This document shows positions 3,220 through 60,005 of a stretch of DNA of 64,000 bases, piece by piece. Location of the stretch: NCBI GenBank assembly GCA_964436545.1, contig CAYTCJ010000002.1, positions 110,738 through 174,737 of the forward strand. The letters run 5' to 3'. This DNA is from an uncultured Candidatus Saccharibacteria bacterium (lineage in GTDB: Bacteria > Patescibacteriota > Doudnabacteria > UBA920). The translations under genes were made by a program, and so were the position numbers. Within the stretch, counting starts at the first letter, position 1; each line of letters starts with the position of its first letter. The notes under the pieces were generated by a model that had not been told where the DNA came from, made no database searches, and worked only from the letters and a program-made list of their open reading frames with translations.

Positions 3220-3756
3220 TTATACTTGTTTAATAATTTTTCTAAACACTTCAGCTTCCAAACGCACTTTTTCCAAAGCATCGTAAGGATTTTTTTGTTT
3301 AAATTTAAAGTAATCAAAAAAAGTATTGGCCGTAGGCATTTTTTTTAAACCGAAATTTAAAGTAAAAATATAACCCAAAGTCCACAAATCCAAAACATGA
3401 GAATCGTAATCAAAGGCCACCAAAGCTTTTTTAAATGCCATTTTTAAAAATAACAAATTGGTTAAATTGTGGGTGGCCAATAAATACTGCTTGCCAAAAA
3501 CTTTATGAAATTGCTTAATGGCATCGTAAATTTTAGGACTTTTTTTTAAAGTTTCCGGAGGAATCCTTAAAAGTTTACTGTGTTCCCAAATTACATTATC
3601 CAAATAACTTACCCGCACATACGAATTAAAAAAACCTTTTTCCAAAAGATTATCTTTATCTAAAACAATGGCGGATAATTGTAAAATGTTATCCTTATCG
3701 GTATCGTTTCCGGTAGTAATTAATTCAAAAAATAAAATATCTTTAATAAATTTCAT
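3220..3756 (-). CDS. DnaQ-like exonuclease paralog with a degenerate catalytic motif I (FELITTGND instead of D-x-E)
   Basis: Same architecture and same C-terminal motif (YDALEKVRLEAEVF) as the neighbouring exonuclease. The Exo I acidic pair is replaced, so it may be catalytically inactive. Confidence 0.5.
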   Translation of the reverse strand: MKFIKDILFFELITTGNDTDKDNILQLSAIVLDKDNLLEKGFFNSYVRVSYLDNVIWEHSKLLRIPPETLKKSPKIYDAIKQFHKVFGKQYLLATHNLTNLLFLKMAFKKALVAFDYDSHVLDLWTLGYIFTLNFGLKKMPTANTFFDYFKFKQKNPYDALEKVRLEAEVFRKIIKQV

Positions 3757-3843
3757 ATTTCTAATCTACCAATTAAACAAATCTGGGATGTCAACAAATA
3801 AAATTTGTAGAGATTTGTATATTTGTTTCATTCGTATATTTGA

Positions 3844-4341
3844 TTATTTCCACGCCTTAACTTTTTCTTCCCCTTTCGTGTAATTTTTTATTAAATCAAT
3901 AATCAATACTCCATTGGTGTGGTCAATTTCGTGCTGAGCCACTCTGGCTATCCAACCATCATCGGTAATTTGAATTTTTTTCCCTTCTGCATCCTGCGCT
4001 TCAATGACTACTTGAATCGGTCTTTTTACCATACCATACACCCCAGGGATAGATAAACAACCTTCTTCAATTTCTCCCTTTTTCCAACTTTTTTTAACTA
4101 TCTTGGCATTATATAAAGGGAATAAACCTTCACCGCTTTTTTCCAAATTAATAATTATAAGTTTAACCGATTTTCCCACCTGTGGAGCAGCGAGACCAAT
4201 CCCGTCCGCATCGCGGACAGTTTCGATCATATTATTGGTCAGATCTATCAGGGCGGGGGATAACGGAAAAACCACCGGATCAGTCGGTTTTCTTAATATT
4301 TCATTAGGATAGGTTAAGATGGGTAAAATCATAAATTGCAT
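3844..4341 (-). CDS. def: Peptide deformylase
   Basis: Def motifs GLAAPQVG, EGCLSIPG and QHEIDH are all present. 165 aa. Confidence 0.9.
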   Translation of the reverse strand: MQFMILPILTYPNEILRKPTDPVVFPLSPALIDLTNNMIETVRDADGIGLAAPQVGKSVKLIIINLEKSGEGLFPLYNAKIVKKSWKKGEIEEGCLSIPGVYGMVKRPIQVVIEAQDAEGKKIQITDDGWIARVAQHEIDHTNGVLIIDLIKNYTKGEEKVKAWK

Positions 4342-4348
4342 CTTAAAA

Positions 4349-4630
4349 TTAATTTTTTTGCTCCTGATTGCGCTTTTTTACCAAATAAGAAAACAGTTTT
4401 CCCGGAGTTTGAATATTTTTATTTTCCAAAACTTCTCCCATAATTTTTCTTAAATAGTCGTGATGATATCTCGTAGCCATACCCAAATACAAACCAAAAT
4501 GCCGACGATCGTTAAATTTTACCGACAACTCTTCCGCAAGCAAATGCGCAGGGGAATGCAAATGCCGGTTAGGTTTGGTGCGAGTGCTGACTTTGGATAA
4601 TTTTTTTGTAATTTTACCAAGGGCTTCCAT
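4349..4630 (-). CDS. Hypothetical basic protein (93 aa)
   Basis: ORF immediately upstream of def on the same strand. Lys/Arg-rich. No family recognised. Confidence 0.4.
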   Translation of the reverse strand: MEALGKITKKLSKVSTRTKPNRHLHSPAHLLAEELSVKFNDRRHFGLYLGMATRYHHDYLRKIMGEVLENKNIQTPGKLFSYLVKKRNQEQKN

Positions 4631-31366: not shown

Positions 31367-31945
31367 CTATTTCTTTCTAACTTCGTTGGTAAGTTTAGAA
31401 GCCAAAGGCGACTGCTGGCCTGCATACTTATTGCCCAGTTTTTTTCTGTAAGGCACTTCTACCGGAGAGGAAACTTCCTCAAACGTAAACGCACAAATGC
31501 GCATACCGGGGTAAAGGGCCACGGGCATTACGCCTAAGTTCCCCAGTTCCATAGTGGGCTTACCCACCCACCCGGGATCAAAAATACTGGCAGTGCCGTG
31601 CACAATAATACCTAAACGGCCGAGCGATGAACGACCTTCAATTCGGCCCAATAAATCGTCAGCCAATTCCAAATTTTCCACAGTGGTAACTAAAGCAAAA
31701 TCTCCCGGTTGCATTACAAACGCTTCCCCCTTTTTTACCACAATTTCCTTCATTAGTTTGTCGGTATCCACCTTACCTTTTAAATCTATATAAGGATGGC
31801 TGGAATGTTTAAACACCCGAAAATTATTGCCTAAATGCAAATCTATAGAACACGAACCCAGTTGCTCCTTAAAATTCGGCTTAGGCGTAATTTTTATTCT
31901 ACCCTCTAACAGGGCTTTTTTTATATGCGTATCAGATAATATCAT
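31367..31945 (-). CDS. dcd: dCTP deaminase
   Basis: MILSDTHIKKALLEGRIKITP ... GSCSIDLHLG is the Dcd/dUTPase-fold signature. 192 aa. Confidence 0.85.
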   Translation of the reverse strand: MILSDTHIKKALLEGRIKITPKPNFKEQLGSCSIDLHLGNNFRVFKHSSHPYIDLKGKVDTDKLMKEIVVKKGEAFVMQPGDFALVTTVENLELADDLLGRIEGRSSLGRLGIIVHGTASIFDPGWVGKPTMELGNLGVMPVALYPGMRICAFTFEEVSSPVEVPYRKKLGNKYAGQQSPLASKLTNEVRKK

Positions 31946-32168
31946 AATTTTTTAATCCCCCCTCTTAGGGTAAGAGGGGGCTAGGGGGTGATATTGTTTA
32001 ATTCCAACCCTAAAATAATACACGAAAAAACCTTTCTTGACAAAATTTTCTCTGTGGATTAAAATAACCTAAATTATGAAATTCCAAAACCTTTCCAGCA
32101 TTATTAGCATTATTATTCCTCGCTTCAGGCAGTGGAAGAGTTTTTAATGCTTTAAATTAAATTCTCTG

Positions 32169-56021: not shown

Positions 56022-58427
56022 TTAACTCTTGGGATTTTGATTAATCCGGGCAAACACCGTGCGTAAAAATTGACGCTGGATTTCCACGCCCATATGCTCA
56101 AATAATTTTCGACTTTCCAAAATATAGTCAATTAACGGATCTTCGGAAGCATAAGAAAATAGTCCGGCTTCTTCTTTTAAAATATCCATTAATTCCAAAT
56201 GCCCGCTCCAATTCTGGTCTATAATTTGCAAAACCAAATTTTGACAAGCCGAATAAACTTCCGGATTGGTTTTTAACCTTTCCATTTGGCCGGTTAATTC
56301 CCGAACAATCCCATTCACCGCTGTCTGAAACCGAAACGGCCTTTGGGAAACAAACACCGGATTAAACCATTCGTTTAAATTCTCCCCCCAAGTTTTTTTA
56401 GCATTTAATTCGGCTAAACCACTTCCGGTAATTTTTAACCCAAAAATCGCATTTAATTCTTGAGTGATTAACTCGGGGACTTGAAGCGCTAAAATATGCT
56501 CTACGGTTTCCGTAATGGCATTTTGCACAAAAGCTTCAAAACCTGTGGGGTTTTCTAACAAGCTGTCTCTTAATTTATAAACCTCAAACCGTTGATAGTT
56601 AGTTACGCTATCATACTTATATAAATAGATGCGACCATCAAAATTCTTACTTTCCACAAAATCTTGCGCTTTTTTAAAAGCCAAATCCAAACTCGGCGCG
56701 CTAATGTATTCATCTTCCGGAATATCAAACTCTTCCATGGCGTCAATAATGCTTTCACTGCCAAACAACCGCATAATTTCATCTTCCATGGAAATTAAAA
56801 ATTGCGATTCTCCCGCATCACCTTGCCTGCCACTTCTCCCAACTAATTGATTATCGATCCGGCGTGACTCGTGCCGTTCTGTGCCCAGCACAAACAGACC
56901 ACCCACATCGGCCACCCCTTGGCCCAATAAAATATCTGTGCCTCTCCCGGCCATATTCGTAGCCACGGTAATCATGCCTCTTTGTCCGGCTTTGGCGATT
57001 TTTTCACTTTCCGCCTTGTGGTCTTTAGCGGTCAAGAGTTGATAGGGTAAATTTTGTTCATCTAAAATTTCCGAAATTAAATGAGCGATCTCCACATTTC
57101 TGGCGCCAATTAAAATGGGCTGACCTTTACTATTAATATGCTTAATTTTTTTTATTAATCCGGCAAATTTGCCTTTTTCAGTTTTAAAAAACAAATCATT
57201 ATGGTCAATTCTGGCTAACGGCCGATTGGTGGGGATTTGCACTACATCTAACTTATAGACTCGGTTAAATTCCTCCCTTGCAGACATCACCGTGCCACTC
57301 ATGCCCGAAAGTTTTTCGTACATGGGAAAAAAATTCTGAAAAGTAATACTGGCAGCGGTCCGGTCGGCTTCTTTCACTTTAACCTTTTCTTTGGCCTCAA
57401 TGGCTTGGTGCACGCCATCGGTAAACCTTCTCCCCGGCAATACCCGGCCGGTAAACTCATCTACAATTTCTACACCTTCCGGTGAAATAATGTAATCCCT
57501 ATCTCGCTCAAATAACACTCTGGCTCTTAAGCACACGTCTAAATAAAAAGCGAACATGGGTTTGTCTTTGGAAAAAATCGTTTCCCCCAATAATTTTTCC
57601 ACTCGATTCAAACCACTATCTGTCATGCTCACGGCCTTATTTTTATAATCCACTTTAAAATCTTCCTCTTCCACCAGCCTCGCACATAGCTCGGTGAATT
57701 GAGTATAATAATTTCTTTCTTCCTTCAAAGGCTCGGCAATAATTAATGGCGTGCGAGATTCATCTATTAAAATCGAATCAATTTCATCTACAATGCCAAA
57801 ATGCAACGGATGCTTGAGCCTTAACACTCGGTCGGATTTTGCATACACCAAATTATCCCGTAAATAATCAAAACCCACTTCTTGATTGGTTACGTAAGTT
57901 ACATCACTCAAGTAAGCTTTGCGCCTTTGCTCGCTTTTCATGGTAGAAGTCACATAACCTACGCTCATTCCCAAAGCTTCATACAGCTTACCGTTTAATT
58001 TAGCGTCTCGTTCTGCCAAATAATCATTGGTGGTAATAATGTGCACACCTTGTCCGGTAAGCGCATTTAAATATACCGGCATGGTTTCGGTTAAAGTTTT
58101 ACCTTCGCCCGCTTTCATTTCCGCCACTCGGCCTTGGTGAATAACCATACCCGCTAAAATTTGCACATCAAAAGGCACCCGATTTAATACCCGCCGTGCT
58201 GTCTCGCCCACCACTGCGAAAGCGGGAATTAACAGCCTGTCTAAAGCTTTGCCTTTTTGCAAATCGTCTTTAAACGCCGAACCCGCGAGCTTTAATTCCT
58301 TATCGCTCCAGGTTTTTAACTCCTCTCTTTCCTTAACAATTAACTTAACCTTATCTTCCAAACGGCTAATATAATTTCTGTCCAAAAAGTCGTTAAATTT
58401 TTGTTTTAGATTTTGTGTAAATTGCAT
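56022..58427 (-). CDS. secA: Preprotein translocase ATPase SecA
   Basis: DEAD-like motor (MKAGEGKTLT Walker A, the VDEIDSILIDESRTPLII Walker B (DEID)/helicase motif II region), PPXD, HSD. 801 aa, lacking the C-terminal Zn finger. Confidence 0.9.
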   Translation of the reverse strand: MQFTQNLKQKFNDFLDRNYISRLEDKVKLIVKEREELKTWSDKELKLAGSAFKDDLQKGKALDRLLIPAFAVVGETARRVLNRVPFDVQILAGMVIHQGRVAEMKAGEGKTLTETMPVYLNALTGQGVHIITTNDYLAERDAKLNGKLYEALGMSVGYVTSTMKSEQRRKAYLSDVTYVTNQEVGFDYLRDNLVYAKSDRVLRLKHPLHFGIVDEIDSILIDESRTPLIIAEPLKEERNYYTQFTELCARLVEEEDFKVDYKNKAVSMTDSGLNRVEKLLGETIFSKDKPMFAFYLDVCLRARVLFERDRDYIISPEGVEIVDEFTGRVLPGRRFTDGVHQAIEAKEKVKVKEADRTAASITFQNFFPMYEKLSGMSGTVMSAREEFNRVYKLDVVQIPTNRPLARIDHNDLFFKTEKGKFAGLIKKIKHINSKGQPILIGARNVEIAHLISEILDEQNLPYQLLTAKDHKAESEKIAKAGQRGMITVATNMAGRGTDILLGQGVADVGGLFVLGTERHESRRIDNQLVGRSGRQGDAGESQFLISMEDEIMRLFGSESIIDAMEEFDIPEDEYISAPSLDLAFKKAQDFVESKNFDGRIYLYKYDSVTNYQRFEVYKLRDSLLENPTGFEAFVQNAITETVEHILALQVPELITQELNAIFGLKITGSGLAELNAKKTWGENLNEWFNPVFVSQRPFRFQTAVNGIVRELTGQMERLKTNPEVYSACQNLVLQIIDQNWSGHLELMDILKEEAGLFSYASEDPLIDYILESRKLFEHMGVEIQRQFLRTVFARINQNPKS

Positions 58428-58455
58428 TTTTTCCGATTAGGACATGAACCTTAAT

Positions 58456-59180
58456 TCTTTTTTTTTGAGGAGGAGGGCTAGAGCTTGCCCCGTACTTGAT
58501 ACGGGGGGTGAGCTATCTATCTTTTCCCCTCTTTTCCAAAGAGGGGTTAGGGGAGTTAATTACTTCTAGCATTCTCTGATAAACTCCTTCTATATTTTTT
58601 ATCACATCAATATTCTGAAACCTAATAACTTTAATACCAATCAATTTCAAATATTCAGTTCTTTGTTTATCGGCTTTAATCAGACTTTCCTCAAAATGAT
58701 GTCCTCCATCTAACTCCACAGCTAACTTTTTTTCTGGACAATAAAAATCTAAAATATAATTGCCTATACCAAACTGCCTAAAAAATTTACAACCTTTAAT
58801 TTGTCTATTCCTTACAATATTCCAAATTTTCCGTTCTGGTTCTGTTAAATTTTTCCGCAACTTTCTTCTTAAATCTTTATTTTTAGCAATATTACTTATC
58901 AACATAACTCCCTCCAAATAACTCCCTCCAACTCCCTCTTTGGAAAAGAGGGAGGGTAAGACAATGTATTTTGTAGATCCTCTCTTTTCCAAAGAAGGTG
59001 GTTAGGAGATTCCTGTTCCCTCTCTTTTCCAAAGAGAGGGTTAGGGTGAGTTAGCTGTCTTCTTCCCCACTTTTCCAAAGCATGCCCTGAGCTTGCCGAA
59101 CGGGAGAGGGCTAAAGCTTAACCTGTACCTGATGCGGTTTGCATTCCATACCTAGTGGGCTTGCCCTGAGATAATTGATT
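58456..59180. repeat. Hairpin-repeat array surrounding the DUF559 gene, with five or more copies of an about 30-bp unit CCCTCT(C)TTTCCAAAGAG(A)GGGTTAGGG(G)GAG in both orientations, plus GAGCTTGCC x3
   Basis: Copies at about 58529-58562, 58933-58972 (inverted), 58976-59008, 59015-59050 and 59063-59085. About 35-bp direct repeats GTGAG(C/T)TA(T/G)CT...TTCCCC(T/A)CTTTTCCAAAG lie at 58500-58545 and 59046-59082. GC content is elevated. Confidence 0.75.
58513..58992 (-). CDS. DUF559 endonuclease-domain protein (Vsr/restriction-endonuclease-like fold). Both ORF ends are encoded by flanking hairpin repeats
   Basis: The core (LDFYCPEKKLAVELDGGHHF...D...VIRF) matches DUF559. The N-terminal MEKRGS...LFSKEGVGG and the C-terminal EKRGKDR are translations of CCAAAGAGGGG repeat units. 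The likely real start is MLISNIAK. Confidence 0.65.
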   Translation of the reverse strand: MEKRGSTKYIVLPSLFSKEGVGGSYLEGVMLISNIAKNKDLRRKLRKNLTEPERKIWNIVRNRQIKGCKFFRQFGIGNYILDFYCPEKKLAVELDGGHHFEESLIKADKQRTEYLKLIGIKVIRFQNIDVIKNIEGVYQRMLEVINSPNPSLEKRGKDR

Positions 59181-59286
59181 TTGTTTCAAATTTCCTTATT
59201 TGCATTAAAATTATACCATAAAAAGTTAAACCGGCGAAACGCAGTAATGCGCTCCGCCGGTTGTTGCGTTTTCCTTCCTCCCCTTC

Positions 59287-59691
59287 CTAATGATCCTCCC
59301 TCTGCCACCAGTCCTGCATTTCTTCACTGCAAAGCTCGCAACGCAAAGTTACTTCAGTAACCCCGTACTGCTTGAGCTGTGTATCATCGATGTTAATGAC
59401 TCTCCACTGATGATCGCATTTGATCTTCTTGGGGAAATACGGAATGATAGTTTCATCTGGATGCACATGAGCGTACATACTTTCCTCTTTCTGATTGAAT
59501 TTTATTTTTTTGGCAACCCCGACGACCTTAGTGCCGGAGTAAAAACAAAAAACCCTTCCTCGCAAGGAAGGGGCTAAATTCATCTGCATCCTAAACTTGT
59601 TTACCCCGTAGCGAACCAAAGGTTCTGCTATTGGAGTTTCAGGATTTATTTTAGATGCTGAAATTAATTCAGCATGACAAGAAAAAATCAA
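59287..59691 (-). CDS. Hypothetical 134-aa protein with Cys pairs (CDHQW...CELCSEE), possible zinc ribbon
   Basis: Overlaps the upstream YerC-like gene by 4 nt (ATGA), implying co-translation. No family recognised. Confidence 0.4.
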   Translation of the reverse strand: MIFSCHAELISASKINPETPIAEPLVRYGVNKFRMQMNLAPSLRGRVFCFYSGTKVVGVAKKIKFNQKEESMYAHVHPDETIIPYFPKKIKCDHQWRVINIDDTQLKQYGVTEVTLRCELCSEEMQDWWQREDH

Positions 59692-60005
59692 AGTAACCCT
59701 TTCCCAACGAAGGAAAGGTTATGGTGCACGCCATTTCTTTTTAACATCAACTTATACCCACCCTTGCCATTCTTAAGCCACTTGGAAATCCGAGCAATGG
59801 TCCGGCTGGAAAGCCGAGTCTGTTTTTGAATAAGGTTATATGACACTTTGGCATTCAGCATTTGCACGGCGAGCCAACGGTTGCCGAATTCGTCCAGTTC
59901 ATCTGGGGTAAGCAAATCGCGAAAAAAAGCCTTAGCTTCTTTTATATTCTTTAAAGCCAAGATTGCTTGGAGCAACTGTTCAGTTTTAAGATTATCCCAT
60001 TTCAT
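59688..60005 (-). CDS. YerC/YecD-like TrpR-family DNA-binding protein
   Basis: 105 aa. LLTPDELDEFGNRWLAVQML...QTRLSSRTIARISKWLKNGKGGYK matches the TrpR-related YerC/YecD pattern. Confidence 0.55.
   Translation of the reverse strand: MKWDNLKTEQLLQAILALKNIKEAKAFFRDLLTPDELDEFGNRWLAVQMLNAKVSYNLIQKQTRLSSRTIARISKWLKNGKGGYKLMLKRNGVHHNLSFVGKGLL

Follow-up and report, generated by a model that had tools for sequence, protein, structure and literature searches.

Why should the gene for a small nuclease lie within an array of hairpin repeats directly upstream of secA? The question is raised by a stretch of 64,000 nucleotides of contig CAYTCJ010000002.1 (assembly GCA_964436545.1, positions 110,738 to 174,737) from an uncultured Candidatus Saccharibacteria bacterium, which was analysed as a whole and is here called the window. 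Between secA and a TrpR-like gene in this stretch, a gene of the DUF559 family is surrounded by five copies of a ~33-nt hairpin unit, three of them intact and two decayed. The locus is one instance of a widespread, geometrically regular pairing of DUF559 genes with repeats of this kind across phyla, and our best reading of it, which we hold with moderate confidence, is that of a selfish nuclease-plus-repeat cassette that sits in the 5' leader of secA and would home among repeat sites.

The nuclease gene and the repeats around it

The DUF559 coding sequence occupies 58513..58905 on the minus strand and encodes 130 residues (ATG at 58905, stop codon at 58513-58515), with the Pfam core at 58558-58881. 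A longer, program-made open reading frame (ORF; 58513-58992, 159 aa, TTG start) enters the repeats at both ends, and its residues 38-145 match positions 3-108 of the 109 in PF04480 (DUF559) at 110.5 bits, the cut-off being 20.6 (E = 5e-32). The true start is marked by GGAGG 5 nt upstream of ATG 58905 and by a 97%-identical homologue (P0001), which opens with the same MLISNIAKN. A sequence-only reading of this DNA had described both ends of the ORF as translated repeats; both ends do lie in repeats, but the first 29 residues precede the true start codon, and about 11-14 C-terminal residues (INSPNPSLEKRGKDR), not 7, are repeat-encoded.

DUF559 and MTES_1575, both PD-(D/E)xK families, were the only Pfam matches of the protein, and the Pfam search found no transposase domain (DDE, HUH/Y1, serine or tyrosine) in it. 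The AF2 model has a mean pLDDT of 84.7, with residues 123-130 below 50, and model and Pfam alike give a single 130-aa domain with no separate DNA-recognition region. All 17 of the 17 columns invariant in 43 homologues are kept, among them D53, E64, D66 and H70, and dN/dS values of 0.19 and 0.13 against the two closest copies (loci L003 and L001, described below) indicate purifying selection on the gene. The nearest solved structure is 3HRL, a Neisseria DUF559 protein (sequence E = 1.6e-18), followed by the catalytic domain of I-Bth0305I (3R3P; Foldseek E = 1.8e-4, TM 0.78; profile E = 5e-4), and then by Vsr (1VSR, 1CW0) and the AbaSI / PvuRts1I nucleases. The protein is a predicted nuclease of the YcjD-like PD-(D/E)xK type with a Vsr-like alpha/beta fold.

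Each repeat unit is built of a pyrimidine arm, a loop, a purine arm and then a G-rich tail in mirror image. In the intact units the stems are perfect over 9-10 bp and the loops measure 3 nt, and as single-stranded DNA these units fold with -8.8 to -9.8 kcal/mol (z = -2.3 to -3.75). With at most 3 mismatches, the 19-nt core occurs seven times in the window against 0.05 expected, and strict hairpin-plus-tail units occur four times against 0.2 in Markov-1 simulations. The sequence-only reading was thus borne out in placing a DUF559 gene within a hairpin-repeat array; it had also counted at least five copies, each a perfect hairpin, and here the number holds while perfect stems are confined to the three intact copies of the array.

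Two of the units bracket the gene. At its 3' end, U1 (CCCCTCTTT-tcc-AAAGAGGGG-TTA-GGGGAG-TTA; 58526..58558, plus strand; -8.8 kcal/mol, z = -2.7) directs its tail into the gene and, lying before the stop codon, codes for the last residues of the DUF559 protein. At the 5' end, U2 (CTCCCTCTTT-tcc-AAAGAGGGAG-TT-GGAGGGAG-TTA; 58916..58954, minus strand) is inverted relative to U1, and its tail also points toward the gene, so that the pair forms terminal inverted repeats (58527-58561 and 58916-58952) with a 19-nt core that is 100% complementary and an extension of ~35 nt. A tandem duplicate of the U2 tail (GGAGGGAGTTATTTGGAGGGAGTT; 58906..58931, minus strand), at 14-nt spacing, provides the GGAGG ribosome-binding site 5 nt before ATG 58905. 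Beyond U2 lies U3 (CCCTCTCTTT-tcc-AAAGAGAGGG-TTA-GGGTGAG-TTA; 59018..59053, plus strand; -9.8 kcal/mol, z = -3.75), which has the orientation of U1 and the form of the type A TM-ECO repeats of E. coli. U4 (58978..59009, plus strand) is decayed, with stem mismatches, a tail TGGTTAGGAGA and a fold no better than that of shuffled sequences, and U5 (59064..59110, plus strand) is decayed or interrupted, consisting of a left arm and loop, a 23-nt stretch CATGCCCTGAGCTTGCCGAACGG and then GAGAGGG. Since the same 23-mer (window 59081-59103) also breaks a unit in L003 (L003 1112-1134), it appears to be a nested insertion.

Perfect 9-10 bp stems, pyrimidine in the 5' arm and purine in the 3' arm, lie at 58526, 58932, 59018 and, away from the locus, 31958. 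In the window units the first loop measures 3 nt and the second 2-3 nt, and the mirror tails read GAGGGG-TTA-GGGGAG, GAGAGGG-TTA-GGGTGAG and GAGGGAG-TT-GGAGGGAG. A G-quadruplex reading of the G-runs was set aside because each unit has only two G-tracts per strand.

This build is that of the intrastrand-triplex motif known as BoxC, PIT or TM. In E. coli MG1655 the motif TM-ECO, e.g. CCCTCGCCCCTTTGGGGAGAGGGTTAGGGTGAGGGG, has 23 copies (Holder et al. 2015, NAR 43:10126; PMC4666352, where earlier work by Hoyne and Maher is cited), and related G/C-rich motifs occur in >260 genomes, being very abundant in cyanobacteria, with hundreds of copies in some (PMC4666352). The motif was defined there by a stem of >=6, a third block of >=6 nt that mirrors the purine arm on the same strand, and loops of 1-6 nt (PMC4666352), and the window units have such a stem, such a mirror third block and loops of such lengths. 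In both cases a pyrimidine arm, a loop and a purine arm are followed by a short second loop (often TTA) and a G/T-rich mirror of the purine arm, as can be seen by setting CCCTCTCTTT-tcc-AAAGAGAGGG-TTA-GGGTGAG from the window against CCCTCGCCCC-ttt-GGGGAGAGGG-TTA-GGGTGAGGGG from TM-ECO, and in both there are solo units, inverted pairs with facing tails, and variable loci. Inverted TM-ECO pairs are found at five MG1655 loci, and TM loci are unusually variable between E. coli strains (PMC4666352). The window-type units differ in being AT-richer and in having third strands of 6-8 nt. From these resemblances we consider it very probable that the repeats belong to the BoxC / PIT / TM class. A further difference concerns their surroundings: in the E. 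coli gene contexts of TM-ECO no transposase, integrase or mobility gene was found, and the words endonuclease, Vsr and ycjD are absent from that paper (PMC4666352), whereas here the units bracket a nuclease gene, and DUF559 genes are generally paired with such units.

An inserted block upstream of secA

A SecA scan of metagenome contigs gave 20 relatives with 61-84% amino acid identity, 16 of them with upstream sequence, and a DUF559 gene lies near secA in none of the 20, although the LemA / TrpR / SecA / GatC neighbourhood is conserved in several. The relatives' upstream region consists of TATGGTATAAT, a leader of ~30 nt and then GAAACAAAA-ATG(secA); TATGGTATAAT and the leader with GAAACAAAA are conserved in L090, L092, L099, L100 and L102 (SecA identity 64-84%), and the run from promoter through leader to ATG is unbroken in 9 of the 16. 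In about 7 of the 16, a single unit of the window's class stands alone immediately 5' of the secA ATG, in the orientation of U1. In the window the promoter-like TATGGTATAAT (59220-59210) and the leader ending in GAAACAAAA (59187-59179; together 59179..59220, minus strand) are separated by ~750 bp (59178 to ~58431) from the ATG at 58427 of secA (56022..58427, minus strand). The whole inserted block in the secA 5' leader, cassette and repeat array together, therefore spans 58431..59178 (minus strand), with approximate ends, most so the secA-proximal one, as the boundaries were set by eye from the window and the relatives' leader sequences.

Close copies of the gene stand elsewhere. The 97%-identical gene P0001 (locus L003) has the same flanking units and adjoins an HD-domain gene, and a 79% relative (L001) has an HD gene on one side and a CAP gene on the other, with a direct repeat of ~115 nt, built from three units, at its flanks; no HD-CAP locus is present in the 64-kb window. 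Window and L003 are 88.5% identical at the nucleotide level over 557 nt that correspond to window 58506-59044 only, that is, to units plus gene, and outside this segment their neighbours differ. The block is thus, with high confidence, an inserted cassette of a mobile type. This agrees with the suggestion of a small selfish or mobile module in the sequence-only reading, for which other copies and empty secA sites in relatives had been the proposed checks: copies were found in L003 and L001, a solo unit lies at 31958-31990, and in the relatives the leader runs straight into the ATG with or without a solo unit.

Since the secA promoter and leader now lie upstream of the cassette, the DUF559 gene is probably co-transcribed with secA from the TATGGTATAAT promoter. 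The cassette also cuts secA, an essential gene, off from the conserved promoter and leader, and its expression may be changed by this. The block had also been described as elevated in GC content, which is true of the repeats (0.47); the nuclease core has 0.28, a value within the bottom 1.2% of windows, and the complete block has 0.379 where the entire window has 0.386.

The same pairing across phyla

A scan of one genome per species yielded at least 518 confirmed DUF559 relatives, of which the top 80 were retained; adding the window and two loci from metagenomes brings the set to 83 non-redundant loci. Represented among the 80 are Patescibacteria, Cyanobacteria, Nitrospirota, Nitrospinota, Desulfobacterota, Bacteroidota, Chlorobiota, Planctomycetota and Proteobacteria. 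A perfect GC-rich hairpin of >=7 bp lies <=110 nt upstream of the core in 61 of the 83 loci, <=100 nt downstream in 62, and on either side in 78, so that each gene end has a hairpin in 73-75% of loci against 3.4% of 2441 control windows from the same loci. The locus search had been confirmed with the 159-aa ORF including its repeat-coded ends, which may have biased the ranking; in loci whose match stops short of these ends, hairpins are still present in 62% and 68%, and selection bias is therefore not the cause of the enrichment.

The arrangement is strikingly regular. Throughout the 83 loci pyrimidines always prevail in the 5' arm and purines in the 3' arm, the loops are mostly 3 nt, and on both sides the stretch adjoining the hairpin, when read in the direction of the gene, has the consensus TT(A/G)GGGG(A/G)GTTA, with the ATG often fused to the tail (...GGGGAGTTATG). 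The tail mirrors the purine arm, e.g. GGGAGAGGG-TTA-GGGTGAGGG; scored at >=7/8 positions with G opposite G and A or T opposite A, a one-sided mirror tail accompanies 79% of 253 hairpins, against 35% when arms and flanks were shuffled between loci (maximum 43% in 500 shuffles). In 39 of the 50 unit pairs that bracket the core the tails face the gene, other arrangements accounting for the remaining 11, and the tail-to-tail gap of 351-544 nt holds just the ORF. Upstream and downstream arms are more alike within a locus than between loci (0.72 versus 0.58, permutation p < 0.0005). Facing pairs without the gene, but with its ATG and its last ~10-20 nt still in place, are also found in two loci (L050, L073) and are, to judge by these retained ends, internally deleted derivatives.

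Locus L050 is rich in such structures. Upstream of DUF559, at 3232-3871, it has three tandem elements of ~200 nt in which the facing units enclose an interior of 135 nt, and on each side of the gene stands a facing pair that lacks the gene but retains its 3' end (3891-3985 and 4499-4593); the locus may be a hotspot of derivative elements.

The downstream hairpin occurs in all three frames relative to the ORF (25, 16 and 21 loci), and the stop codon falls, from locus to locus, before the unit, in its tail, in either arm, in the loop or beyond. The units are thus conserved as DNA rather than as protein, the repeat-coded ORF ends are incidental, and the earlier view that the DUF559 core is the functional protein and the repeats are non-coding stands.

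Relatives of the gene were found in only 40 of 72,556 plasmid records and 2 of 50,697 phage records, a rarity which indicates that the element is not ordinary plasmid or phage cargo. The recurrence of the pairing across phyla suggests that the DUF559 family is the missing partner of the BoxC / intrastrand-triplex repeats.

The pairing extends to model organisms. In E. coli K-12 the end of the DUF559 gene ycjD (...NRRSPSP*) overlies a degenerate unit, GGTCACCCTCTCCCTGAAAGAGCGAGGGGG (L084, K-12 1351204-1351760), and is followed by a duplicated fragment of the gene's own 3' end and then by TM-ECO no. 9. Of 5426 complete E. coli genomes, 3378 carry ycjD and 2048 (38%) do not, and ~2,080 of the 5426 have no near-full-length match to the K-12 version of the ycjD region; in the one ycjD-negative strain examined (4/1-1, L105), the sapF-fabI gap holds a TetR-RND-MFS efflux operon. 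On plasmid pAQ6 of Picosynechococcus PCC 7002, cyanobacterial forms of the unit (CCCCGATTCGGGG-GCTA-GGGGG) lie on both sides of a DUF559 gene.

Copies in frame within other genes

In 14 of the 83 loci the nuclease core lies inside an open frame of 326-1498 aa (in-frame loci include L015, L053, L082, L067, L048, L079, L023, L028, L071, L049, L058 and L062). The hosts are HrpA-type helicases, in which the insert falls between the DEAD and Helicase_C domains, MmeI-type enzymes, in which it splits the methyltransferase domain, Eco57I-type methyltransferases and HsdM. The units in these frames translate as PSPxxGEG-like linkers, and in L015 solo units are in frame too. Two MmeI-type orthologues that are 54% identical carry the element at different sites ~50 residues apart, and the full element in one corresponds to a solo unit only in the other. 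The in-frame copies are independent insertions that are held in frame by selection.

The pairing would explain the DUF559 'domains' inside HrpA helicases and MmeI, Eco57I and HsdM methyltransferases, as well as the odd PSPxxGEG-like ends given by gene callers. DUF559 domain-containing proteins have been found 14-fold enriched among predicted programmed-inversion targets, alongside DNA methyltransferases (PMC9881135), and the inverted flanking units, together with the insertions into methyltransferases, may explain this signal.

A candidate mobile element and the alternatives

In the mechanism that we propose, the full element would be [unit>]-DUF559-[<unit], with tails toward the gene. At the window locus the nuclease is read from ATG 58905, with the ribosome-binding site supplied by the tail of the upstream unit, and around the cassette lie further units of this type together with other small hairpins. 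The enzyme would recognise the structured repeat, or the junction of two facing tails, and cut there; recombinational repair from a gene-carrying copy, with the units as homology, would then copy the gene in, which amounts to homing among repeat sites. Gene-less inverted pairs and solo units would be non-autonomous or decayed relatives of the element, or its targets. That the nuclease itself acts on the repeats and drives their spread is a plausible step to which we give somewhat less than even weight, and the label 'homing-type nuclease', which the sequence-only reading had used, is meant here in this conditional sense. More tentatively still, DUF559 proteins in general may be structure-specific (hairpin/triplex) endonucleases and the partner of BoxC/PIT, the gene between facing units being a new mobile element that spreads among repeats, seeds them in most bacterial phyla and can settle in frame in genes for helicases and methyltransferases.

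Several points weigh against this picture. The nuclease consists of a single 130-aa domain and does not have the extra DNA-binding domain of I-Bth0305I. The best match between the block's junctions, in a search for a target-site duplication, was 14/21, which was reached by 401 of 2000 shuffles (20%). The TM-ECO single strand forms a stable triplex in vitro and the duplex none, and footprinting gave no evidence of a triplex in vivo (PMC4666352). Units far outnumber DUF559 genes in published genomes (in MG1655, 23 TM-ECO against one ycjD), the model offers no route by which solo units would reach new sites, and the absence of ycjD from 38% of complete E. coli genomes shows dispensability only. 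Lastly, the loci were picked for having DUF559, so that the survey shows DUF559 to be nearly always with units and not the converse; in E. coli most units in fact stand without the gene.

The alternative that survives best, unlikely as we consider it, makes the nuclease a passenger at a hotspot: the repeats would spread by slippage at non-B DNA or by another enzyme, and DUF559, with an unrelated role such as Vsr-type mismatch repair tied to methyltransferases, would gather units or land in unstable spots. This accords with the hypervariability of TM loci in E. coli (PMC4666352), with the solo units in ~7 of 16 secA leaders, which mark the site as repeat-prone, with the many DNA methyltransferases among the in-frame hosts and with the other small hairpin elements nested in the same arrays. 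The geometry, however, is too regular for chance, with 39 of 50 pairs facing, an ATG often fused to the tail and a gap of 351-544 nt; the homology block shared by window and L003 takes in units and gene together, deletion derivatives keep the gene ends, and the unit arms co-vary with the locus.

A second possibility, of low probability in our judgement, is suggested by another class of repeat. RAYTs (REP-associated tyrosine transposases) are HUH/Y1 single-strand transposases of the IS200/IS605 family, and REPs and REPINs are short structured dispersed repeats, with one protein gene between two inverted copies and with gene-less inverted doublets that replicate; the REPs are plain imperfect palindromes without a mirror tail. 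By analogy, DUF559 would be a domesticated, mostly single-copy host nuclease that spreads or maintains triplex-type repeats in trans and is kept for a benefit to the host. The likeness lies in the protein gene flanked by two inverted units, U2 and U1 in the window, and in the facing tails of most bracketing pairs; the purifying selection on the gene, its rarity on plasmids and phages, and the excess of units over genes in E. coli (PMC4666352) would fit as well. Yet the window units, unlike REPs, carry a mirror tail, and DUF559, unlike RAYT, is a Vsr-like PD-(D/E)xK nuclease for which, to our knowledge, no strand-transfer chemistry is known. In close relatives gene and units lie at different loci, and at the secA site the gene is absent from all SecA relatives; together with the in-frame insertions into unrelated host genes, the deleted derivatives beside full copies and the absence of ycjD from many E. 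coli genomes, this fits a mobile gene better than a fixed host gene.

We strongly disfavour, as very improbable, the view that the hairpins are the gene's ordinary expression signals, that is, ribosome-binding, mRNA-stabilising or terminator structures with nothing mobile about them. The purine arm and tail do provide GGAGG before the ATG, here and before secA or dcd in solo cases, and hairpins at both ends could protect an mRNA, but no T-run follows the hairpins, a plain stem-loop has no use for a mirror tail, the gene is polymorphic in presence and absence, and identical units occur without a gene, in frame inside coding regions and in arrays. Even the span of the program-made ORF across the repeats and the similar NSPxPSL peptides at the ends of some homologues leave practically no room for the repeats as genuine coding sequence for N- and C-terminal extensions of the nuclease, a reading refuted at the level of conservation, since the hairpin occurs in all three frames with the stop codon anywhere relative to the unit, homologues start at an internal Met, the C-terminal tail has a pLDDT below 50, and the Pfam domain ends before the unit.

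Comparison with known systems

The selfish cassette that we favour resembles several known systems in part. Homing endonucleases of the EDxHD or Vsr-like type share the catalytic fold and are free-standing or inserted selfish genes, present or absent at a given site. Their representative I-Bth0305I is a multidomain enzyme of a phage group I intron, with a unique sequence of a conserved gene as its target (Dassa 2009, PMC2677866; Taylor 2011, PMC3239194); the protein of the window, by contrast, is a 130-aa single domain encoded in the chromosome, with no intron or intein, and is tied to a repeat rather than to a unique site. With E. coli Vsr it shares the fold superfamily (1VSR, 1CW0), although the match is weak (Foldseek E ~0.08, 14% identity); furthermore, no Dcm methyltransferase gene adjoins it in the window, and neither a mobile context nor flanking repeats are features of vsr. 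The JGI label for these DUF559 genes is nonetheless 'very-short-patch-repair endonuclease'.

The in-frame copies (L015, L071 and others) recall the palindromic elements of Rickettsia and other in-frame inserts resembling MITEs. Rickettsia palindromic elements are short palindromic repeats that lie in frame inside coding genes without breaking them and carry no gene, whereas the elements described here carry a nuclease domain of ~110 aa in frame with the repeats, and the window copy is intergenic. Terminal inverted repeats are shared with IS and MITE elements, but there is no supported target-site duplication and no transposase domain.

The repeat class, the protein family and the Vsr-like homing endonucleases are each known already, separately. 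New, as far as the literature found allows us to say, are the link between DUF559 and BoxC/PIT, the [unit>]-gene-[<unit] element with its deleted derivatives, and the residence in frame; no published link between DUF559 and BoxC/PIT repeats was found in a search from which subscription journals were mostly outside coverage, and an earlier report is possible. BoxC/PIT/TM repeats have been catalogued for decades in hundreds of genomes without a known origin, function or mobilising enzyme, and no role has been assigned to DUF559, a very large family of the nuclease fold. Their specific and regular pairing is a candidate explanation for each, which can be tested in tractable organisms with YcjD and BoxC in E. 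coli and with pAQ6 in Picosynechococcus PCC 7002.

Other features of the locus

All genes at the locus are read from the minus strand, in the order TrpR-like gene (59688-60005), a 134-aa ORF (59287-59691), a terminator-like hairpin (59229..59262, minus strand) that belongs to the upstream gene and marks the end of the neighbouring unit, the inserted block, and secA. Neither Pfam nor, in the 20 related secA loci, tblastn gave a match to the ORF at 59287-59691, between the TrpR-like gene and the cassette; those loci have other sequence between trpR and secA in its place. Rfam at gathering thresholds gave no family match anywhere in the 64-kb window, introns included, and no tRNA or tmRNA genes were found in the window.

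One solo unit outside the locus within the window (CCCCCTCTTA-ggg-TAAGAGGGGG-CTA-GGGGGTGA; 31958..31990, plus strand) is of the same class as U1-U5. It precedes a dCTP-deaminase-like gene (31367-31945, minus strand) by 12 nt, and the Shine-Dalgarno position of this gene is occupied by the purine arm of the unit, and the solo units before secA in L086, L099, L096 and L089 are positioned likewise.

A second type of hairpin, CCCCGTA-cttga-TACGGGG (58488-58506) with flanking GCTAGAGCTTGC, lies at 58473..58510 (plus strand; -7.7 kcal/mol, z = -3.2). A degenerate copy of it stands at 59106-59137, giving a direct repeat of 32 nt (58473-58504 and 59106-59137) that is 81% identical and corresponds to the flanking direct repeats of ~35 bp proposed earlier, and the hairpin segment at 58473..58510 is 97.5% identical to L003 507-546, there on the opposite side of the gene. 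The motif (A/T)G(A/G)GCTTGCC was likewise recovered as a triplicate, at 58480, 59088 and 59156.

Hairpin sequences of 23-39 nt are seemingly nested in units of the triplex type, often in the second loop between tail and hairpin. Such sites were seen in the window at 59081-59103 and 58473-58510, in L003 at 1112-1134 and upstream of secA in L094, L098, L089 and L087, an example being TGTCGCtcagatgcattcGCGACA in L094 and L098. The repeat arrays resemble mosaics of several tiny elements, the modules of which swap sides between the window and L003.

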